Source of the DNA: Escherichia coli
GTDB taxonomy: Bacteria > Pseudomonadota > Gammaproteobacteria > Enterobacterales > Enterobacteriaceae
Assembly (NCBI RefSeq): GCF_045037415.1
Contig: NZ_CP173438.1
Strand: one strand, 5' to 3'
Length of the DNA: 64,000 nt
Both the position numbers and the translations under genes were made by a program. This document shows, one piece after another, positions 16,597-57,031 of this stretch (position 1 is the stretch's first letter; every line of letters starts with the position of its first letter). Below the pieces are notes generated by a model, which saw only the letters and a program-made list of their open reading frames with translations, made no database searches and had not been told where the DNA came from.

Positions 16597-17331
16597 ATGT
16601 CCAAACTCGATCTAAACGCCCTGAACGAACTGCCAAAGGTAGACCGGATTCTGGCGCTGGCGGAAACTAACGCCCAACTGGAAAAACTGGACGCTGAAGG
16701 CCGCGTAGCCTGGGCGCTGGATAATCTGCCCGGTGAATATGTACTTTCTTCCAGCTTTGGCATTCAGGCGGCGGTGAGCCTGCATCTGGTGAATCAGATT
16801 CGCCCGGATATTCCAGTGATCCTCACCGATACCGGCTATCTGTTCCCGGAAACCTACCGCTTTATTGACGAGTTAACGGACAAACTCAAGCTCAACCTGA
16901 AAGTGTATCGTGCTACCGAAAGCGCCGCCTGGCAGGAAGCACGCTACGGCAAACTGTGGGAGCAGGGCGTTGAAGGCATTGAAAAGTACAATGACATCAA
17001 CAAAGTCGAACCGATGAACCGGGCGCTGAAAGAACTGAATGCGCAAACCTGGTTTGCTGGCCTGCGCCGTGAACAATCCGGCAGCCGCGCCAATTTACCG
17101 GTGCTGGCAATTCAGCGTGGCGTATTTAAAGTGCTGCCGATTATCGACTGGGATAACCGAACTATTTATCAGTACCTGCAAAAACATGGCCTGAAATATC
17201 ACCCATTATGGGATGAAGGATATTTATCGGTGGGCGATACCCATACAACCCGTAAATGGGAACCCGGCATGGCGGAAGAAGAAACGCGTTTCTTTGGCTT
17301 AAAAAGGGAATGTGGATTACACGAAGGGTAA
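16597..17331 (+). CDS. cysH: phosphoadenosine phosphosulfate (PAPS) reductase
   Basis: 244 aa from the ATG at 16597 ([14 protein letters not shown]...); C-terminal ECGLH motif. Confidence 0.95.
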
Positions 17332-17348
17332 ATATTGCCGGATAAATT

Positions 17349-17389
17349 AAACGCCTCTGTCAGAAATGATGGAGGCGTTTTTATTTTTT
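17349..17389 (+). terminator. intrinsic terminator downstream of cysH
   Basis: Stem AAACGCCTC / GAGGCGTTT followed by a T-rich run TTTATTTTTTG. Confidence 0.6.
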
Positions 17390-17399
17390 GCGAGCAGCA

Positions 17400-17800
17400 T
17401 TCCGGCATTTAAAGGTGAACATCGCAGGGAAAATTAACAGGTATAGAATGGCATTGGGTGCTTGAGGCTGTCTGGCGTTAAGCATTCGCAAGGTTCCAGA
17501 TGGACAAAAGCCCCAGGCGATATTTCTATCAACCTGAGGCTCGCGTTCGAACGTAGCAATTCGGATGTTAGTCTCTTCTTTGCAGGGAGGCAAGACATGC
17601 TGACAAAATATGCCCTTGTGGCAATCATCGTACTGTGTTGTACAGTACTGGGATTCACGTTGATGGTAGGCGACTCGTTGTGTGAGTTGAGTATCAGAGA
17701 ACGTGGTATGGAGTTTAAGGCAGTTCTCGCTTACGAATCGAAGAAGTAGCCACCACGCGGGGTAAAACCCCGCGTACTGAATTGTGATGGTTTGGCCTCC
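17400..17800 (+). other. hok/sok-type type I toxin-antitoxin locus (antisense Sok RNA expected on the minus strand over the hok leader; not mapped)
   Basis: Contains a Hok-family ORF with an in-frame upstream mok-like extension and a 3' GC hairpin (CGCGGGG-TAAAA-CCCCGCG, 17756-17774). Confidence 0.55.
17597..17749 (+). CDS. hokX: Hok/Gef-family membrane toxin (50 aa)
   Basis: [50 protein letters not shown]: one transmembrane helix plus conserved SLCE...AYES Hok signature; symbol assigned because the hok homologue next to cysH is, as I recall, the hokX/sokX locus. Confidence 0.65.
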
Positions 17801-17874
17801 TGCACCCCTTTTTTATACTCTGTTTCTGGTGGCATTGATTTCCTGCAGGCAAGGGAGTAATCATTTCAAACCCA

Positions 17875-18912
17875 TTAAGATGCCTTCGCCAGCTCCTTCA
17901 CCAACGGTAGCATTATCCGCATAACATCACGGCAGCGACGTTCTATTCTTCCAGGAAGTGCCTTATCAATATGCTGTTGATTATCCAGTCTTACGTCATG
18001 CCAGCTATTTCCCGCAGGGAATGCGGCTGTTTTTGCTCGTTGCTGATAACCATCCTTATTGCCAAGATTCCAGTTAGTCGCTTCCACCGAAAGTACAGCA
18101 ATACCGGCTTTGTCGAATATTTCTGCGTCATTACAACACCCGGTGCCTTTCGGATAGTTTTTATTCAAACCTGGATTTGTGGTGGCGGCAATTCCATGGC
18201 TGCGGGCAATTGCCAGCGCCCGGTCGCGCGTTAATTTCCTTACTGCTTCAGGGGTTTTTACACCGCTGTTGAAATACAATTTATCGCCAACAATTAAGTT
18301 ATCGAGATTAATCACCAGCAGCGTATTTTTCTTTTCGGTGTCACTCATCCGCTTGAGTAAATTCTCAGCGCCTAATTTTCCTTCCTCTTCGCCGCTGGTC
18401 GCCACAAATCGAATACCATACTCGGTAGGCGTATTTTTCAGGCGCTCGGCCAGTTCCAGCATGACACCTAAACCTGCGGCGTTATCATCCATTCCTTGTA
18501 ACGTCAGCCCGCCGAGATTGGCATCGGCGTCAGCATCGCTCAGCGGGGCGTAAGTATCCAGATGCGCCATAATGATGATCTGCTGCGGCGTTTTGCCTTC
18601 ATGAGCGGCAATCACCGTACTTCCCGTCACGTTATGCCAGCTCTTGCGATTATCGCGGGCGGTATAAATATACCGACTATTAAATGTCCGAATATCACTG
18701 CGATAACCCATTTGCTGAAACTGTTGGCGAATATAATCGGCAGATAACATTTCTGCAGGAGTTCCGGTCATGCGTCCCGGAAAGAAAGTAGCAATATGTC
18801 GTGCCTGGGTATTAGCAAAATCGCCAGGTTTAGGTGACGAGGCGTGTACGGGGAGAATAAAGCATACGCCGAGCGCCAGGGCAGCGGTACGGTGGCGCAA
18901 TGCGGAAAACAT
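17875..18912 (-). CDS. iap: alkaline phosphatase isozyme conversion aminopeptidase (M28 family)
   Basis: 345-aa ORF with signal peptide; position between cysH and cysD. Confidence 0.9.
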   Translation of the reverse strand: MFSALRHRTAALALGVCFILPVHASSPKPGDFANTQARHIATFFPGRMTGTPAEMLSADYIRQQFQQMGYRSDIRTFNSRYIYTARDNRKSWHNVTGSTVIAAHEGKTPQQIIIMAHLDTYAPLSDADADANLGGLTLQGMDDNAAGLGVMLELAERLKNTPTEYGIRFVATSGEEEGKLGAENLLKRMSDTEKKNTLLVINLDNLIVGDKLYFNSGVKTPEAVRKLTRDRALAIARSHGIAATTNPGLNKNYPKGTGCCNDAEIFDKAGIAVLSVEATNWNLGNKDGYQQRAKTAAFPAGNSWHDVRLDNQQHIDKALPGRIERRCRDVMRIMLPLVKELAKAS

Positions 18913-26737: not shown

Positions 26738-27877
26738 ATGAGCGCGGGAAGCCCAAAATTCACCGTTCGCCGCATTGCGGCATTGTCACTGGTTTCGCTA
26801 TGGCTGGCAGGCTGTTCTGACACTTCAAATCCACCGGCACCGGTCAGCTCCGTTAATGGCAATGCGCCCGCAAATACCAATTCTGGTATGTTGATTACGC
26901 CGCCGCCGAAAATGGGGACGACGTCTACAGCGCAGCAACCGCAAATTCAGCCGGTACAGCAGCCACAAATTCAGGCTACTCAACAACCGCAAATCCAGCC
27001 TGTGCAGCCAGTAGCTCAGCAGCCGGTACAGATGGAAAACGGACGAATCGTCTACAACCGTCAGTATGGGAACATTCCGAAAGGCAGTTATAGCGGCAGT
27101 ACATACACCGTGAAAAAAGGCGACACGCTTTTCTATATCGCCTGGATTACTGGCAACGATTTCCGTGACCTTGCTCAGCGCAACAATATTCAGGCACCAT
27201 ACGCGCTGAACGTCGGTCAGACCTTACAGGTGGGTAATGCTTCCGGTACGCCAATCACAGGCGGAAATGCCATTACCCAGGCCGACGCAGCAGAGCAAGG
27301 AGTTGTGATCAAGCCTGCACAAAATTCCACCGTTGCTGTTGCGTCGCAACCGACAATTACGTATTCTGAGTCTTCGGGTGAACAGAGTGCTAACAAAATG
27401 TTGCCGAACAACAAGCCAACTGCGACCACGGTCACAGTGCCTGTAACGGTACCAACAGCAAGCACAACCGAGCCGACTGTCAGCAGTACATCAACCAGTA
27501 CGCCTATCTCCACCTGGCGCTGGCCGACTGAGGGCAAAGTGATCGAAACCTTTGGCGCTTCTGAGGGGGGCAACAAGGGGATTGATATCGCAGGCAGCAA
27601 AGGACAGGCAATTATCGCGACCGCAGATGGCCGCGTTGTTTATGCCGGTAACGCGCTGCGCGGCTACGGTAATCTGATTATCATCAAACATAATGATGAT
27701 TACCTGAGTGCCTACGCCCATAACGACACAATGCTGGTCCGGGAACAACAAGAAGTGAAGGCGGGGCAAAAAATAGCAACCATGGGTAGCACCGGAACCA
27801 GTTCAACACGCTTGCATTTTGAAATTCGTTACAAGGGGAAATCCGTAAACCCGCTGCGTTATTTGCCGCAGCGATAA
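26738..27877 (+). CDS. nlpD: murein hydrolase activator lipoprotein NlpD (LysM + M23 peptidase domain)
   Basis: 379-aa ORF; lipobox LAGCSD; Q/P-rich repeats; C-terminal M23 domain. Confidence 0.95.
27339..27367 (+). promoter_or_regulatory. candidate major rpoS promoter inside nlpD (TTGCGT-N17-TATTCT)
   Basis: Hexamers read from sequence; places a start site roughly 565 nt upstream of the rpoS ATG, matching the known long rpoS 5' UTR arrangement. Confidence 0.4.
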
Positions 27878-27939
27878 ATCGGCGGAACCAGGCTTTTGCT
27901 TGAATGTTCCGTCAAGGGATCACGGGTAGGAGCCACCTT

Positions 27940-28932
27940 ATGAGTCAGAATACGCTGAAAGTTCATGATTTAAATGAAGATGCGGAATTTGATGAGAACG
28001 GAGTTGAGGTTTTTGACGAAAAGGCCTTAGTAGAAGAGGAACCCAGTGATAACGATTTGGCCGAAGAGGAACTGTTATCGCAGGGAGCCACACAGCGTGT
28101 GCTGGACGCGACTCAGCTTTACCTTGGTGAGATTGGTTATTCACCACTGTTAACGGCCGAAGAAGAAGTTTATTTTGCGCGTCGCGCACTGCGTGGAGAT
28201 GTCGCCTCTCGCCGCCGGATGATCGAGAGTAACTTGCGTCTGGTGGTAAAAATTGCCCGCCGTTATGGCAATCGTGGTCTGGCGTTGCTGGACCTGATCG
28301 AAGAGGGCAACCTGGGGCTGATCCGCGCGGTAGAGAAGTTTGACCCGGAACGTGGTTTCCGCTTCTCAACATACGCAACCTGGTGGATTCGCCAGACGAT
28401 CGAACGGGCGATTATGAACCAAACCCGTACTATTCGTTTGCCGATTCACATCGTAAAGGAGCTGAACGTTTACCTGCGAACCGCACGTGAGTTGTCCCAT
28501 AAGCTGGACCACGAACCAAGTGCGGAAGAGATCGCAGAGCAACTGGATAAGCCAGTTGATGACGTCAGCCGTATGCTTCGTCTTAACGAGCGCATTACCT
28601 CGGTAGACACCCCGCTGGGTGGTGATTCCGAAAAAGCATTGCTGGACATCCTGGCCGATGAAAAAGAGAATGGTCCGGAAGATACCACGCAAGATGACGA
28701 TATGAAGCAGAGCATCGTCAAATGGCTGTTCGAGCTGAACGCCAAACAGCGTGAAGTGCTGGCACGTCGATTCGGTTTGCTGGGGTACGAAGCGGCAACA
28801 CTGGAAGATGTAGGTCGTGAAATTGGCCTCACCCGTGAACGTGTTCGCCAGATTCAGGTTGAAGGCCTGCGCCGTTTGCGCGAAATCCTGCAAACGCAGG
28901 GGCTGAATATCGAAGCGCTGTTCCGCGAATAA
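27940..28932 (+). CDS. rpoS: RNA polymerase sigma factor RpoS (sigma-S)
   Basis: 330 aa from the ATG at 27940 ([17 protein letters not shown]...); sigma-70 family regions 2-4; reading frame intact, codon 33 is GAG. Confidence 0.95.
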
Positions 28933-28947
28933 GTAAGCATCTGTCAG

Positions 28948-28985
28948 AAAGGCCAGTCTCAAGCGAGGCTGGCTTTTTTTCTTTT
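28948..28985 (+). terminator. rpoS intrinsic terminator
   Basis: GGCCAGTCTC-AAGC-GAGGCTGGC hairpin followed by TTTTTTTCTTTT. Confidence 0.7.
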
Positions 28986-29102
28986 GGTACATGTTGAACT
29001 GTTATCGGATACAGCGTTAAAACTTTATCTGACTGACCAGGGGACGGCACTTTTTAGATGTAGAAGACCGGATAGACGCGTCAGCATCACATTCGGCAAT
29101 CA

Positions 29103-29654
29103 TCATTTTAAGCGCGCAGTAATTGTCGCCACGCGTTCACCATATTTCACGGCTGTATCCAGATCGCCCGTAGGGATTTGCTCTGCACCCGCATCGGCTG
29201 GAGATTGCACCAGCAAACCGACCGAACCGCCCAGATTGTTTACATCTTCCCTGGTTGACGCAAGCACATTGGCAGGAGCCTGACCTAAACTCACCCACAG
29301 ACCGCCATGCTGTGAAGCCAGCGTTTGCAGATAGATCAGCGTAACTTGTTTATCGCCATTCAGGCTGGCGCTGTTGGTGAAACCCCCGAAGACTTTATCC
29401 TGCCATTTACGTGTAAACCACGCTTTGGAACTGGCATCAGCAAATTTCTTGAATTGCCATGGCGCACCGCCCATATAGGTGGGAGCACCGAAGATAATGG
29501 CATCGGCTGCGTCCAGTTTTTCCCACTCCTGCTCAGTGATATTTCCTTCGTTATCAATCGAAATTAAATCTGCATGGGCGCCTTGTGCCACTTTTTCAGC
29601 AACCAGTTTAGTGTGACCATATCCTGAATAATAAACCACAGCTATGTTTTGCAT
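29103..29654 (-). CDS. flavodoxin-like NAD(P)H:quinone oxidoreductase (WrbA family)
   Basis: 183-aa ORF; N-terminus MQNIAVVYYSGYGHTKLVAEKVAQGA closely parallels the WrbA FMN-binding loop; AT-rich surroundings. Confidence 0.75.
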   Translation of the reverse strand: MQNIAVVYYSGYGHTKLVAEKVAQGAHADLISIDNEGNITEQEWEKLDAADAIIFGAPTYMGGAPWQFKKFADASSKAWFTRKWQDKVFGGFTNSASLNGDKQVTLIYLQTLASQHGGLWVSLGQAPANVLASTREDVNNLGGSVGLLVQSPADAGAEQIPTGDLDTAVKYGERVATITARLK

Positions 29655-29878
29655 ATAAATATCCTTTTTACTAATGAATGATTTTTTGAGGCAGGTTTTA
29701 AAGATGTGGAGTATTATGCCTTGCAGATATTATTTAAACCATCAAATGATGAACATATTTTTTGAATGAGATAAACATAATATTCGAAGAAAAATGAATC
29801 TCGTAACGTAGTAATATCTAAAATAACAGTCTGTTCAGAGATGCTATAAATCAACAACACATTAATAAAGGACTACGT

Positions 29879-30922
29879 ATGCAAGGCATTAAAATATATA
29901 CAATTCTAGCCTCTTCTCTTATATCTGGTAGTGTTTTTGCTCAAACGGAAATTTCGACTTCAAATTCGTCTACAGTTAATGCAAGTTATGTTGAACCTTC
30001 AGCGGAAAAAATAATATCGCCAAGCGATAAACTCAATAACCTTTTTGAAAGAAATATGTCTCAGCCTTATATTTTACAAAAAATTGGCGAGAGAACTTAT
30101 TATGTTCAACGCTATTTTTATTCCACTACGTTTTATGTCGGAGACAAAGGGGTTTTGCTGTTTGATGCTCCGGAGGGTCGCGGTAAATATTTATTACAGG
30201 CAATTCGTGATGTGACTCCATTACCCGTAACAGCGCTGGTTTATTCTCATTACCATGTGGATCACATTGGCGATAGTCCATTTTGGAACGATGAGGCGAA
30301 GAAAGAAGGCGTGAATCTGCGTATTATTGCCAGTAAAGCCACTGCTGAAAAAATGCAATTTATGAACAGTCGCTTACCCGTCGCCACTCAGGTTTTAAGT
30401 AAAAAAGATGACCAGTTTAAATTTGAAAAGCAGACCATTGAATTACACCGATTTGTTAAAGCAGGACATACCGACGACCATTCTGTATGGTTGCTAAAAC
30501 AGGAAAAAGTAGCTCACAGCCCGGATCTCCTGAATCCTGACCAACTGCCGATGATGGGCTTCGCCGTATCGGATACGTTGGTTTACCATGACAGTAATTT
30601 GCGTCAGGTTGAAATGCTTGACTGGAAATATTTTATTGGCGGGCATGGTAATATTGGTTCACACGATGATTTTAAATTTCAACGCCAGTTTCTTAATGAT
30701 CTTCGGGATACGACAATTAAAGTCAGAAAAGAAGAAAGTTTTGGTAAATTTATGAATAAAACGGCAAATAATCATGCTGATTTTGCGCGAGCCCAGCGCG
30801 AAGCAATTATTAAAAAAGTAACTGAAGTATTACGTCCGAAATATGGCCATATGTATGGCTACGACGCATCTATGCCTGCTAATATCGAAATGGCAATAAG
30901 GTTGGTCGGTTCTTATTACTAA
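29879..30922 (+). CDS. secreted metallo-beta-lactamase-fold hydrolase
   Basis: 347-aa ORF; signal peptide (ILASSLISGSVFAQ); HYHVDH zinc-binding motif; markedly AT-rich versus flanking core genes. Confidence 0.75.
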   Translation: MQGIKIYTILASSLISGSVFAQTEISTSNSSTVNASYVEPSAEKIISPSDKLNNLFERNMSQPYILQKIGERTYYVQRYFYSTTFYVGDKGVLLFDAPEGRGKYLLQAIRDVTPLPVTALVYSHYHVDHIGDSPFWNDEAKKEGVNLRIIASKATAEKMQFMNSRLPVATQVLSKKDDQFKFEKQTIELHRFVKAGHTDDHSVWLLKQEKVAHSPDLLNPDQLPMMGFAVSDTLVYHDSNLRQVEMLDWKYFIGGHGNIGSHDDFKFQRQFLNDLRDTTIKVRKEESFGKFMNKTANNHADFARAQREAIIKKVTEVLRPKYGHMYGYDASMPANIEMAIRLVGSYY

Positions 30923-30969
30923 GATAAAATCAACTTGCAAGAGACTGTAATTATATTGCAAAGTGAAAA

Positions 30970-31002
30970 TTAACCTCGGTAGCGAGATATTACCGAGGTT
31001 AA
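30970..31002. terminator. bidirectional hairpin between convergent MBL-fold gene and ygbN
   Basis: Perfect 12-bp inverted repeat TTAACCTCGGTA / TACCGAGGTTAA with 9-nt loop. Confidence 0.5.
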
Positions 31003-31064
31003 TATTGGCATACATTACACCCTTATCAGGCACTTAAACGATACATCATATCTTATCTGGATTA

Positions 31065-37876: not shown

Positions 37877-40438
37877 TTACACCAGACTCTTCAAGCGATA
37901 AATCCATTCCAGCGCCTGACGCGGAGTCAGTGAATCCGGGTCGAGGTTTTCCAGTGCCTCGACCGCAGGCGAAGTTTCTTCCGGTACGGACAGCAAAGAC
38001 ATTTGTGTACCATCCACTTGCGTAGCAGCGGCGTTCGGCGAAATGCTTTCCAGCTCACGCAGTTTTTGCCGTGCGCGCTTAATAACCTCTTTTGGCACAC
38101 CCGCCAGAGCTGCAACCGCCAGGCCGTAGCTTTTGCTCGCCGCGCCATCCTGCACGCTATGCATAAAGGCAATGGTGTCGCCGTGCTCCAGTGCATCGAG
38201 ATGCACGTTGGCGACGCCTTCCATTTTCTCCGGTAACTGGGTCAGCTCGAAATAGTGGGTAGCAAACAGCGTCAACGCTTTGATCTTATTTGCCAGATTT
38301 TCCGCACACGCCCACGCCAGCGACAGACCATCGTAAGTGGACGTTCCACGCCCGATCTCATCCATCAACACCAGACTATATTCGGTGGCGTTATGTAAAA
38401 TATTGGCGGTTTCGGTCATCTCCACCATAAAGGTTGAACGCCCGGAAGCCAGATCATCCGCAGCACCTACGCGGGTAAAGATACGGTCAATCGGGCCAAT
38501 CTCGACTTTTTGCGCCGGTACGTAGCTGCCGATATACGCCATCAGCGCAATCAACGCGGTCTGGCGCATATAGGTACTTTTACCGCCCATGTTCGGACCG
38601 GTAATGATCAACATGCGACGCTGCGGCGACAGGTTCAGTGGGTTAGCGATAAACGGCTCATTCAGTACTTGTTCAACTACCGGATGGCGACCTTCGGTAA
38701 TACGAATGCCAGGTTTATCAATGAAGGTCGGGCAGGTATAGTTCAGGGTATAGGCCCGTTCCGCCAGGTTCACCAGCACGTCGAGTTCCGCCAGCGCGCT
38801 CGCGCTCTGTTGCAACGCTTCCAGATGCGGCAACAGCAGGTCGAACAGCTCTTCATAAAGTTGTTTTTCCAGAGCCAGTGCTTTGCCTTTTGAGGTGAGA
38901 ACTTTATCTTCGTACTCTTTTAGCTCTGGAATGATGTAGCGCTCGGCGTTTTTCAGCGTCTGGCGACGCATGTAGTTGATTGGTGCCAAATGGCTTTGCC
39001 CACGGCTGATTTGAATGTAGTAGCCGTGCACCGCATTAAAGCCAACTTTCAGCGTGTCCAGGCCGGTACGTTCACGCTCGCGGACTTCCAGACGCTCCAG
39101 ATAATCGGTCGCGCCGTCAGCCAGCGCGCGCCACTCATCCAGCTCTTCGTTATAGCCCGATGCGATAACACCACCGTCGCGTACCAGCACCGGTGGTGTG
39201 TCGATGATTGCTCGCTCCAGCAGATCGCGCAGCTCGGCAAACTCGCCCATCTTCTCACGCAGCGCTTGTACCGGTGCACTATCGACATTTTCTAACTGCG
39301 CACGCAACTCCGGCAGTTGCTGGAAAGCGTGACGCATACGGGCCAGATCGCGTGGGCGAGCGGTACGCAACGCCAGACGCGCCAGAATACGTTCCAGGTC
39401 GCCCACCTGACGCAGTACCGGCTGCAGCTCGGCGGTGAAATCCTGCAATGCGCCAATAGTTTGCTGACGCTCAAGCAACACGCGGGTATCGCGCACTGGC
39501 ATATGCAGCCAGCGTTTCAACATACGACTACCCATCGGCGTTACAGTGCAGTCGAGCACTGAAGCCAGCGTATTTTCCGCACCGCCGGCCAGGTTCTGAG
39601 TAATTTCCAGGTTACGACGCGTCGCGGCATCCATAATGATGCTGTCCTGCTGACGTTCCATAGTGATAGAACGGATATGCGGCAGGGTCGTGCGTTGGGT
39701 ATCTTTCGCATACTGCAACAGACAACCGGCAGCACAAAGTCCGCGTGGTGCGTTCTCCACACCAAAACCGACCAGATCTCGGGTGCCAAATTGCAGGTTC
39801 AATTGCTGGCGAGCGGTGTCGATTTCAAACTCCCACAGCGGGCGACGACGCAGGCCGCGGCGACCTTCAATCAGCGACATCTCGGCGAAATCTTCTGCAT
39901 ACAGTAATTCCGCTGGATTCGTACGTTGCAGTTCTGCCGCCATCGTTTCGCGGTCCGCCGGTTCGCTCAGGCGAAAACGACCGGAACTGATATCCAGCGT
40001 TGCGTAGCCGAAACCTTTACTGTCCTGCCAGATAGCCGCCAGCAGGTTGTCCTGACGTTCCTGCAACAGCGCTTCATCGCTGATGGTGCCCGGCGTAACG
40101 ATACGGACAACTTTGCGCTCGACCGGCCCTTTGCTGGTCGCCGGATCGCCAATCTGTTCACAAATAGCGACGGATTCGCCCTGATTCACCAGTTTGGCGA
40201 GGTAGTTTTCCACCGCATGGTAGGGAATCCCCGCCATCGGGATTGGCTCTCCCGCTGAAGCACCGCGTTTGGTCAGTGAAATATCCAGCAGTTGCGACGC
40301 CCGTTTTGCGTCGTCATAAAACAGTTCATAAAAGTCGCCCATCCGGTAAAACAGCAGGATCTCGGGATGCTGGGCTTTCAGCTTGAGATACTGCTGCATC
40401 ATGGGCGTATGGGCGTCGAAATTTTCTATTGTACTCAT
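37877..40438 (-). CDS. mutS: DNA mismatch repair protein MutS
   Basis: 853-aa ORF; Walker [10 protein letters not shown]; N-terminal mismatch-binding domain. Confidence 0.97.
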
Positions 40439-54960: not shown

Positions 54961-55420
54961 CGTTTTACTTTGTGTTGGCAATAGCATGATGGGCGATGAT
55001 GGCGCAGGCCCGCTACTGGCGGAAAAGTGCGCCGCCGCGCCGAAAGGTAACTGGGTAGTGATTGACGGCGGTAGCGCACCGGAAAACGACATTGTCGCTA
55101 TCCGCGAACTGCGCCCGACACGGCTGCTGATTGTCGACGCCACGGATATGGGGCTAAACCCTGGCGAGATCCGCATCATCGACCCGGCTGACATCGCCGA
55201 GATGTTTATGATGACTACCCATAACATGCCGCTGAACTATCTTATCGACCAGTTGAAAGAAGATATTGGCGAAGTGATTTTCCTTGGCATCCAGCCGGAT
55301 ATCGTCGGCTTTTACTACCCGATGACTCAGCCGATTAAAGATGCGGTGGAAACGGTGTATCAGCGGCTGGAAGGCTGGGAAGGAAATGGCGGCTTCGCGC
55401 AGTTAGCGGTGGAAGAATAA
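54953..55420 (+). CDS. hycI: hydrogenase 3 maturation endopeptidase
   Basis: 155-aa ORF; last gene of the hyc operon. Confidence 0.9.
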   Translation: MTDVLLCVGNSMMGDDGAGPLLAEKCAAAPKGNWVVIDGGSAPENDIVAIRELRPTRLLIVDATDMGLNPGEIRIIDPADIAEMFMMTTHNMPLNYLIDQLKEDIGEVIFLGIQPDIVGFYYPMTQPIKDAVETVYQRLEGWEGNGGFAQLAVEE

Positions 55421-55655
55421 TTCTTCATTAGGGAATTCAGGGAATTGAACATCAAAACAGGGATGTGCGCTTTTTTATTGAGCTTAGTGCTGCCTGCACA
55501 GGCCACCAGCTTTACCGAATATCTGCCAATGAGTGACAGCGAATACGCGCAAAAGCGGGCGCTGAAACCTCTCCTGACCATGCCTTATGATGCCGAGCAA
55601 ACCTGGCATTTTAGAAAAGTGGGCGTCTGACACGTTACTACAGAGAGAACAAAGA

Positions 55656-56075
55656 ATGACTGCTAATGCTGCACGCGCTGTTAAAGCAACAAGAGAACTG
55701 GTCAATGCAGTCCCCTTTCTGGGAGGCAGTGACTCAGAAGATGATTACCGTGAAGCACTGGAACTGGTCGAATATTTGATTGAAGAAGATGATACTAATC
55801 CACTTATCGACTTTCTGGCGAGCCGCATTGCAGAATATGAAAACAATAACGAAAAGTTTGCAGAGTTCGACAAAGCCGTTGCAGCAATGCCTGTTGGTGT
55901 GGCGTTACTTCGCACGCTGATTGATCAACATAATCTGACCTATGCAGATTTGAAGAACGAAATCGGCTCTAAATCCCTGGTCAGCCAGATTTTATCTGGA
56001 CAACGTTCCCTGACGATATCCCACATTAAGGCACTTTCAGCCCGATTTGGCGTTAAGCCGGAATGGTTTCTTTGA
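55656..56075 (+). CDS. XRE-family transcriptional regulator with C-terminal helix-turn-helix and acidic N-terminal domain (function unknown)
   Basis: 139 aa from the ATG at 55656 (longer ORF from 55587 lacks an RBS); C-terminal HTH LTYADLKNEIGSKSLVSQILSGQRSLTISHIKALSARFGV; acidic N-terminal half (SDSEDDYREALELVEYLIEEDD). Confidence 0.6.
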   Translation: MTANAARAVKATRELVNAVPFLGGSDSEDDYREALELVEYLIEEDDTNPLIDFLASRIAEYENNNEKFAEFDKAVAAMPVGVALLRTLIDQHNLTYADLKNEIGSKSLVSQILSGQRSLTISHIKALSARFGVKPEWFL

Positions 56076-56125
56076 CTGATGGCAGACGCTAAATCGCCTG
56101 ATGCGCTACGCCTATCGGGCTTTGA

Positions 56126-56157
56126 AAGGGCGCAGATTCTTAATTTTGCGCGCCCTT
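56126..56157. terminator. hairpin between convergent XRE gene and DUF4259-like gene
   Basis: Stem AAGGGCGC / GCGCCCTT with 16-nt loop, followed by GTTTGTCATT on the plus strand. Confidence 0.4.
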
Positions 56158-56166
56158 GTTTGTCAT

Positions 56167-56604
56167 TCAGGCTGTTGTCTTTACTACTCTTAATTTATCA
56201 GTAAGCTCAATCAGATATGCTTTTGCTTTTTCGCGTGCTCGCCCCTCGAAAAGCATTATCCACTCATGTGTGTCGTCGATTGTTTGTAAACGGCCCTGGA
56301 GTTTTTTGCTGAAAGTCGACGTGAGCTGATAACCGTCGAGTTGATCAATTTGTTTACTCGATGTGATTTTTTTCCCGGCTGCTTTTTGAATGATAAGTTC
56401 AACGAAACCGATAACATTATTATCGTAATTATCGTAGAGAAATTCTTCATCTCCCTGAAATCCGAACAAATCTTCATGCTGGCTTAAGCGTTGAACAATT
56501 GACTCGGCATCAAAGGTCGAATCATCTTGCAGTTGTTCCTCTACCCAATTAATCAAATCCAGCCCTTCGTCGCTTTCGAGAGCCTCCATTCCCCATGAAC
56601 CCAT
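56167..56604 (-). CDS. DUF4259-like hypothetical protein
   Basis: 145-aa ORF starting MGSWGMEALESDEGLDLINW (the MGxWG...D..LD N-terminus typical of DUF4259, assigned from memory); RBS AGGTAAGGA upstream. Confidence 0.6.
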   Translation of the reverse strand: MGSWGMEALESDEGLDLINWVEEQLQDDSTFDAESIVQRLSQHEDLFGFQGDEEFLYDNYDNNVIGFVELIIQKAAGKKITSSKQIDQLDGYQLTSTFSKKLQGRLQTIDDTHEWIMLFEGRAREKAKAYLIELTDKLRVVKTTA

Positions 56605-56896
56605 TTTGTATCCTTACCTGTTATTTCAGTCGAAATAGTATTATTCAATAAAGGTTCATCGCTAATCTGCGATGAACCTCAAAATACAATCATATGGATA
56701 GCTGACAAAGTGGTCGTTGTTCACGCCGTATCCGGCACGGTTGCTTCCCTTAAATCCTCCCCGTTACTGGCAATTACTTTTTTATACCACCAGAACGACT
56801 TGTCGGAAAAAAGTACCCAGATGTGGACTGGCAACGATAAAATATTCATTAGAAAACGGATTCTCTCTGCCTTACTACGATAAATACTGTCATCAC

Positions 56897-56924
56897 ATGT
56901 CATCGACACTAGTGTCGATGACAT
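56897..56924. promoter_or_regulatory. perfect 28-bp palindrome ATGTCATCGACACTAGTGTCGATGACAT; candidate FhlA-type activator site for hydN-hypF
   Basis: All 14 base pairs of the dyad verified position by position; contains the TCGACA / TGTCGA hexamers also clustered in the hyp-hyc control region; about 110 bp upstream of the hydN ATG. Confidence 0.4.
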
Positions 56925-57031
56925 CGTTTTTCCTGTAGTACAGAATTTAATTTCCTTAAATAACAGTAAATTAAAAACTGGCATGATTTGTGAATGTATC
57001 GGCGCATTAACTGTTATTGCTGGAGAATTTG

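Follow-up and report, generated by a model that had tools for sequence, protein, structure and literature searches.

Within the 64,000-nucleotide stretch of Escherichia coli DNA analysed here (the window), the gene order pcm-nlpD-rpoS is preserved, with rpoS directly downstream of nlpD, as in all E. coli and as expected from enterobacterial synteny. The rpoS gene is accompanied by its upstream control region, most of which overlaps nlpD, and by a terminator. The features on which the analysis is based are the following.

26738..27877, plus strand: nlpD, an open reading frame within which lie the promoter of rpoS and the greater part of the rpoS leader; annotated in both JJ1887 and MG1655 as murein hydrolase activator NlpD.
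27339..27373, plus strand: main rpoS promoter inside nlpD, read from the sequence, with hexamers at 27339-27367 (TTGCGT, 17 nt, TATTCT).
27821..27843 (about -119 to -97), plus strand: upstream arm of the predicted self-inhibitory hairpin, also the DsrA-pairing segment, GAAATTCGTTACAAGGGGAAATC; from reading and folding.
27928..27932, plus strand: AGGAG, the Shine-Dalgarno sequence, 7 nt before the rpoS ATG, read from the sequence and the same in MG1655.
27940..28932, plus strand: coding sequence of rpoS (sigma-S), 330 codons and the stop codon TAA; translated without internal stop.
28036..28038, plus strand: rpoS codon 33, GAG (Glu), where K-12 strains vary between TAG and CAG; read directly.
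28946..28985, plus strand: strong intrinsic terminator, 14 nt past the rpoS stop, with a 15-bp stem, a 4-nt loop and a T-run.

The rpoS ATG is located at 27940, which places codon 33, 96 nt further on, at 28036-28038. The window reads GTA GAA GAG GAA around this position. As the codon was read directly from a conserved gene, chance is of no concern for the observation. Translation of 27940-28932 meets its first stop at codon 331 (TAA), without frameshift. Direct reading and translation therefore bear out the initial annotation, which had reported GAG at codon 33 in an intact frame of 330 aa. A stop or frameshift elsewhere in the gene would have undermined that claim; both were looked for throughout 27940-28932 and none was found.

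The product was identified as RpoS by two equivalog profiles. NF004207 (NCBIfam) gave 604.6 bits against a cut-off of 394 and aligned over profile positions 1-329 of 329, and TIGR02394 gave 480.7 bits against a cut-off of 378.7. Pfam assigned Sigma70_r1_2 to residues 56-88, r2 to 94-163, r3 to 174-248 and r4 to 262-315. This is the architecture of a group 2 sigma factor of about 330 aa, with neither a long region 1.1 nor a non-conserved insert. Residue 33 is carried by an acidic N-terminal segment, the first 55 residues containing 17 Asp or Glu versus 3 Lys or Arg. Residue 173 is a Lys, which we take to be a determinant for both RssB recognition and C(-13) promoter selectivity. The whole protein is identical to RefSeq WP_000081550.1. 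It is also identical to the RpoS chains of PDB entries 6kj6 and 5ipl and of other E. coli holoenzyme structures, except for E33Q, the structures having Q33.

The transcription start site of rpoS presumably lies 567 nt upstream of the ATG, as deduced from the published 567-nt leader. The promoter region is identical to that of MG1655 (alignment columns 21-198). A consensus promoter scan did not flag this promoter inside nlpD because its -35 hexamer, TTGCGT, matches the consensus at 3 of 6 bases. The lone match of the scan, at 28643-28671 inside rpoS, was discounted, one match having been found versus 4.1 expected by chance. In the predicted fold of 27790-27960, the GAAATTCGTTACAAGGGGAAATC segment pairs with the Shine-Dalgarno and start-codon region (MFE of -51.1 kcal/mol), a fold that is only modestly better than that of shuffled sequence (z = -1.76). 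The assignment of the hairpin is thus drawn mainly from the match to the characterised leader of K-12 and from established knowledge. We likewise take the segment at 27821-27843 to be the DsrA-complementary site, the role of the sRNA being assumed from established knowledge. Over the 706 nt upstream of the rpoS ATG, five differences from MG1655 were counted (99.3% identity). Each of them lies either where the leader overlaps the nlpD coding sequence or ahead of the promoter. The promoter hexamers, the GAAATTCGTTACAAGGGGAAATC segment, the Shine-Dalgarno sequence and the final ~160 nt of the leader all match MG1655. A search of the whole window with Rfam at the gathering threshold retrieved no rpoS-leader family, the sole match being an unrelated sok RNA.

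The genomic background of the window was examined with a 24-kb query centred on rpoS, which matched many ST131 (O25b:H4) genomes with essentially full identity. A base-by-base comparison over 64 kb with the ST131 uropathogen JJ1887 (NZ_CP014316.1) revealed 4 SNPs, at positions 38639, 47391, 52026 and 56406, and no indels. The SNP at 38639 is synonymous and lies in mutS codon 600 (Pro600, CCA versus CCG); a 41-mer around it had no match in the 5,426 RefSeq complete E. coli genomes. The window is ST131-like, of phylogroup B2, and does not have the genomic background of K-12. The initial annotation had read codon 33 against the K-12 laboratory lineages. Its facts about the codon hold, but their application to this strain does not: in an ST131-like B2 strain GAG is the expected natural state and not a notable 'unmutated' K-12 allele.

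The rpoS allele of the window was then compared with those of MG1655, W3110 and natural isolates. MG1655 rpoS (b2741, NP_417221.1) differs at 8 nt (985/993 identical). Seven of these differences are silent and G97C (E33Q) is the sole non-synonymous one, so that MG1655 has an intact gene with Gln33 (CAG) whereas the window has Glu33 (GAG). Both genomes share the length of rpoS, its order with nlpD, pcm and surE, and the final ~160 nt of the leader. W3110 rpoS also differs from the window at 8 nt, and is annotated as a pseudogene with an internal stop. This rpoS(Am) allele has TAG at codon 33, in contrast to the sense codon and full-length product of the window. Variation of codon 33 in K-12, amber codon included, had been part of the initial annotation and is confirmed by the CAG of MG1655, the TAG of W3110 and PMC2700278. 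With reference to Atlung 2002 and to Subbarayan & Sarkar 2004, PMC2700278 describes K-12 stocks as having TAG, CAG, TAT or GAG at this codon, and GAG as common in natural non-K-12 isolates.

Among the ST131 strains, JJ1887, whose genome is the nearest to the window, has an intact rpoS gene 100% identical to that of the window at the DNA level, with the same nlpD-rpoS synteny, leader and terminator, and the DNA of rpoS is likewise 100% identical in many other ST131 genomes. Seven further natural or clinical alleles were chosen among 60 genomes sampled at even spacing across the whole ranking: Nissle, O157:H7 Z1825, ST540, E2855, ST2747, AR437 and CFSAN061770. All are annotated as WP_000081550.1, are intact, have GAG at codon 33 and are separated from the window by 5-28 nt, every difference being silent. 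In CFSAN061770 there are 28 such differences, and the protein is identical to that of the window although the DNA is 97.2% identical. The amino-acid sequence of RpoS from Nissle 1917 and O157:H7 is the same as in the window (330 aa, E33). JJ1886 (NC_022648.1), the ST131 reference, has the same allele as the window at 992/993 nt, with GAG at codon 33. However, a TCG to TAG change (S47*, window 28078-28080) makes its gene a RefSeq pseudogene, whereas the window has Ser47 and an intact frame. Altogether, 12 full-length alleles yielded 43 polymorphic sites. Synonymous changes account for 41 of these, leaving codon 33 in K-12 and the JJ1886 nonsense mutation at codon 47. As judged from these sequences, the pattern is one of strong purifying selection on a single canonical protein, with occasional loss-of-function lesions. 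An example of a natural loss-of-function allele within the evenly spaced sample of 60 genomes is provided by the pig isolate ZLWT (NZ_CP066144.1), whose rpoS is 992 nt long and frameshifted by a 1-nt deletion, codon 33 being GAG.

The frequency of each codon 33 in the species was determined by Megablast, using 41-nt queries with the first base of the codon at their centre. A match guarantees the exact codon because an exact 28-mer is needed and each 28-mer of a 41-mer spans the central 15 bases. GAG was present in at least 5,052 of the 5,426 complete E. coli genomes (93%), CAG in 175 (3.2%) and TAG in 121 (2.2%), counts that quantify a point already published. The GAG total is the sum of 4,849 and 203 genomes: the three codon queries left 281 genomes unaccounted for, and a fourth query recovered 203 of them, which had been missed at first because a silent GTA-to-GTT change at codon 31 breaks the exact seed. 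Seventy-eight of the 5,426 genomes were unclassified at codon 33, including 12 without an rpoS match and 14 with a partial match only. Of the CAG records, the 40 listed come mostly from MG1655 or other laboratory strains derived from K-12. Similarly, the 40 TAG records listed are mostly K-12 laboratory strains (W3110, J53, HMS174, S17-1, NEB Turbo), and O16:H48 'mouse gut' isolates are also among them. Finally, DNA 100% identical to the window rpoS occupied the first 6 of the 60 rows of the evenly spaced sample. Roughly 450-540 complete genomes would thus have exactly this nucleotide allele, which is consistent with the heavy sequencing of ST131.

With high confidence, we conclude that the rpoS of the window is the normal, functional chromosomal gene of an ST131-like B2 E. 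coli, encoding the canonical 330-aa sigma-S with Glu33. Glu33 is the natural state of the species and, judging from its distribution within E. coli, most likely the ancestral one. The TAG and CAG variants are derived alleles of the K-12 laboratory lineage and are not relevant to the window strain. As far as the sequence can tell, there is no argument against a functional rpoS gene. The alignments place the window rpoS in the E33 form of natural isolates, and the earlier description of a wild-type allele stands, the gene being intact and its product identical to the species-wide WP_000081550.1. A wild-type general stress response of the strain would be a prediction from this allele.

By analogy with K-12, rpoS would be transcribed mainly from the promoter inside nlpD, giving a leader of ~567 nt. 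This leader is expected to fold back onto the ribosome-binding site and to be opened by the Hfq-dependent sRNAs DsrA, RprA and ArcZ. The K173 determinant being present, RssB would deliver sigma-S to ClpXP. Sigma-S would then compete with sigma-70 for core RNA polymerase and direct the general stress and stationary-phase regulon. The level and activity of RpoS are also set by RssB, anti-adaptors, Hfq, sRNAs and Crl, which are encoded outside the window.

An intact frame could coexist with an attenuated or altered RpoS function, brought about by regulators encoded elsewhere or by the few cis differences in the leader, in which case a wild-type stress response would no longer be predicted by the allele. 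RpoS output is heavily dependent on trans factors, and five nucleotides differ from MG1655 within the 706 nt upstream of rpoS. In addition, isolates often carry mutations in the rpoS pathway (PMC2700278), and UPEC and ST131 strains possess an extra anti-adaptor, IraL, of which JJ1886 has two copies (PMC4045071). However, the five upstream differences leave the promoter hexamers, the Shine-Dalgarno sequence, the sRNA-pairing segment and the final 160 nt of the leader untouched. Moreover, the whole region is identical to that of JJ1887 and many other ST131 clinical isolates, so that it holds nothing private to the window strain. We therefore consider an altered function quite improbable. It is also unlikely, in our view, that residue 33 acts as a tuning site, Glu33 giving a lower basal (exponential-phase) output of the RpoS regulon than the Gln33 of MG1655. 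This proposal originates from PMC6892915, in which eight strains were grouped by residue 33: in exponential phase the activity of the RpoS i-modulon was lower in E33 strains (BL21(DE3), HS, Crooks) than in Q33 K-12 strains (MG1655, BW25113), and residue 33 was suggested as the cause. The strongly acidic N-terminal segment around residue 33 is in line with this suggestion. However, the comparison in PMC6892915 is confounded by strain background, as it was made between different genomes with no isogenic swap. The holoenzyme structures carry Q33, and residue 33 lies ahead of region 1.2 (from residue 56), the first sigma domain to be recognised; the sequence indicates no role for residue 33. In K-12 amber strains, a sigma-S truncated at the N-terminus by initiation near codon 54 retains activity. 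Given the i-modulon data, a 'wild-type' rpoS is best understood as the natural allele, which need not have the same output as that of MG1655. If tuning by residue 33 were real, much of the RpoS physiology of K-12 would rest on measurements of a slightly atypical protein.

The numbering of codon 33 itself would be shifted if the true product were 342 aa long and started at ATG 27904, the in-frame upstream codon to which the mechanical list of open reading frames extended rpoS. This start was rejected as extremely unlikely. There is no Shine-Dalgarno sequence before ATG 27904, whereas AGGAG stands 7 nt ahead of 27940. The alignment of the NCBIfam RpoS profile begins at residue 1 of the 330-aa form, which is also the form of the PDB constructs and the RefSeq annotation of RpoS in every genome inspected, including the identical sequence of JJ1887.

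The functional 330-aa sigma-S with Glu33 is a textbook gene in its commonest natural form, and as such is already known. The odd ones out are MG1655 (Q33) and W3110 (amber), not the window strain, whose master stress regulator is none of the frequent loss-of-function alleles. An intact rpoS is a useful background for the stress, biofilm and virulence phenotypes of an ST131-type isolate.

Within the coding sequence, codon 54 is an in-frame internal GTG (28099-28101) preceded by GGAGCCAC at 28084-28091, as in the main Shine-Dalgarno region. The GTG54 codon with a preceding GGAG is common to W3110 and the window. We take GTG54 to be a secondary start, by which K-12 strains with an amber codon 33 make an active, N-terminally truncated sigma-S. 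The site is conserved in the window, though not needed there.

Three structural differences distinguish the window from MG1655. They involve the following features.

17456-17612, plus strand: sok RNA (Rfam RF01794, 104 bits, full-length model).
~17597-17749, plus strand: hok coding sequence, in the cysH-iap interval (17331-17875).
29103-29654, minus strand: flavodoxin-family protein, in the 2-kb insert between rpoS and ygbN (28990-31040).
29879-30922, plus strand: MBL-fold metallo-hydrolase, in the same insert.
55445-55630, plus strand: hypothetical protein, in the hycI-hydN interval.
55656-56075, plus strand: HTH-domain protein, in the hycI-hydN interval.
56167-56604, minus strand: hypothetical protein, in the hycI-hydN interval.

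In MG1655, ygbN directly follows rpoS, whereas in the window the two genes are separated by the 2-kb insert. This two-gene insert is found in 1,042 of the 5,426 complete E. coli genomes, Nissle and ST131 among them, and is absent from MG1655; it belongs to the known polymorphic mutS-rpoS region. The cysH-iap interval of the window holds the hok/sok toxin-antitoxin locus alone. In contrast, MG1655 has cas3, casABCDE, cas1 and cas2 at this place, with only a sokX remnant. The window strain is therefore without type I-E CRISPR-Cas in this interval. Finally, between hycI and hydN (~55420-57017) the three small open reading frames stand where MG1655 has the cryptic beta-glucoside operon ascGFB, and those at 55445-55630 and 55656-56075 might form a toxin-antitoxin pair.
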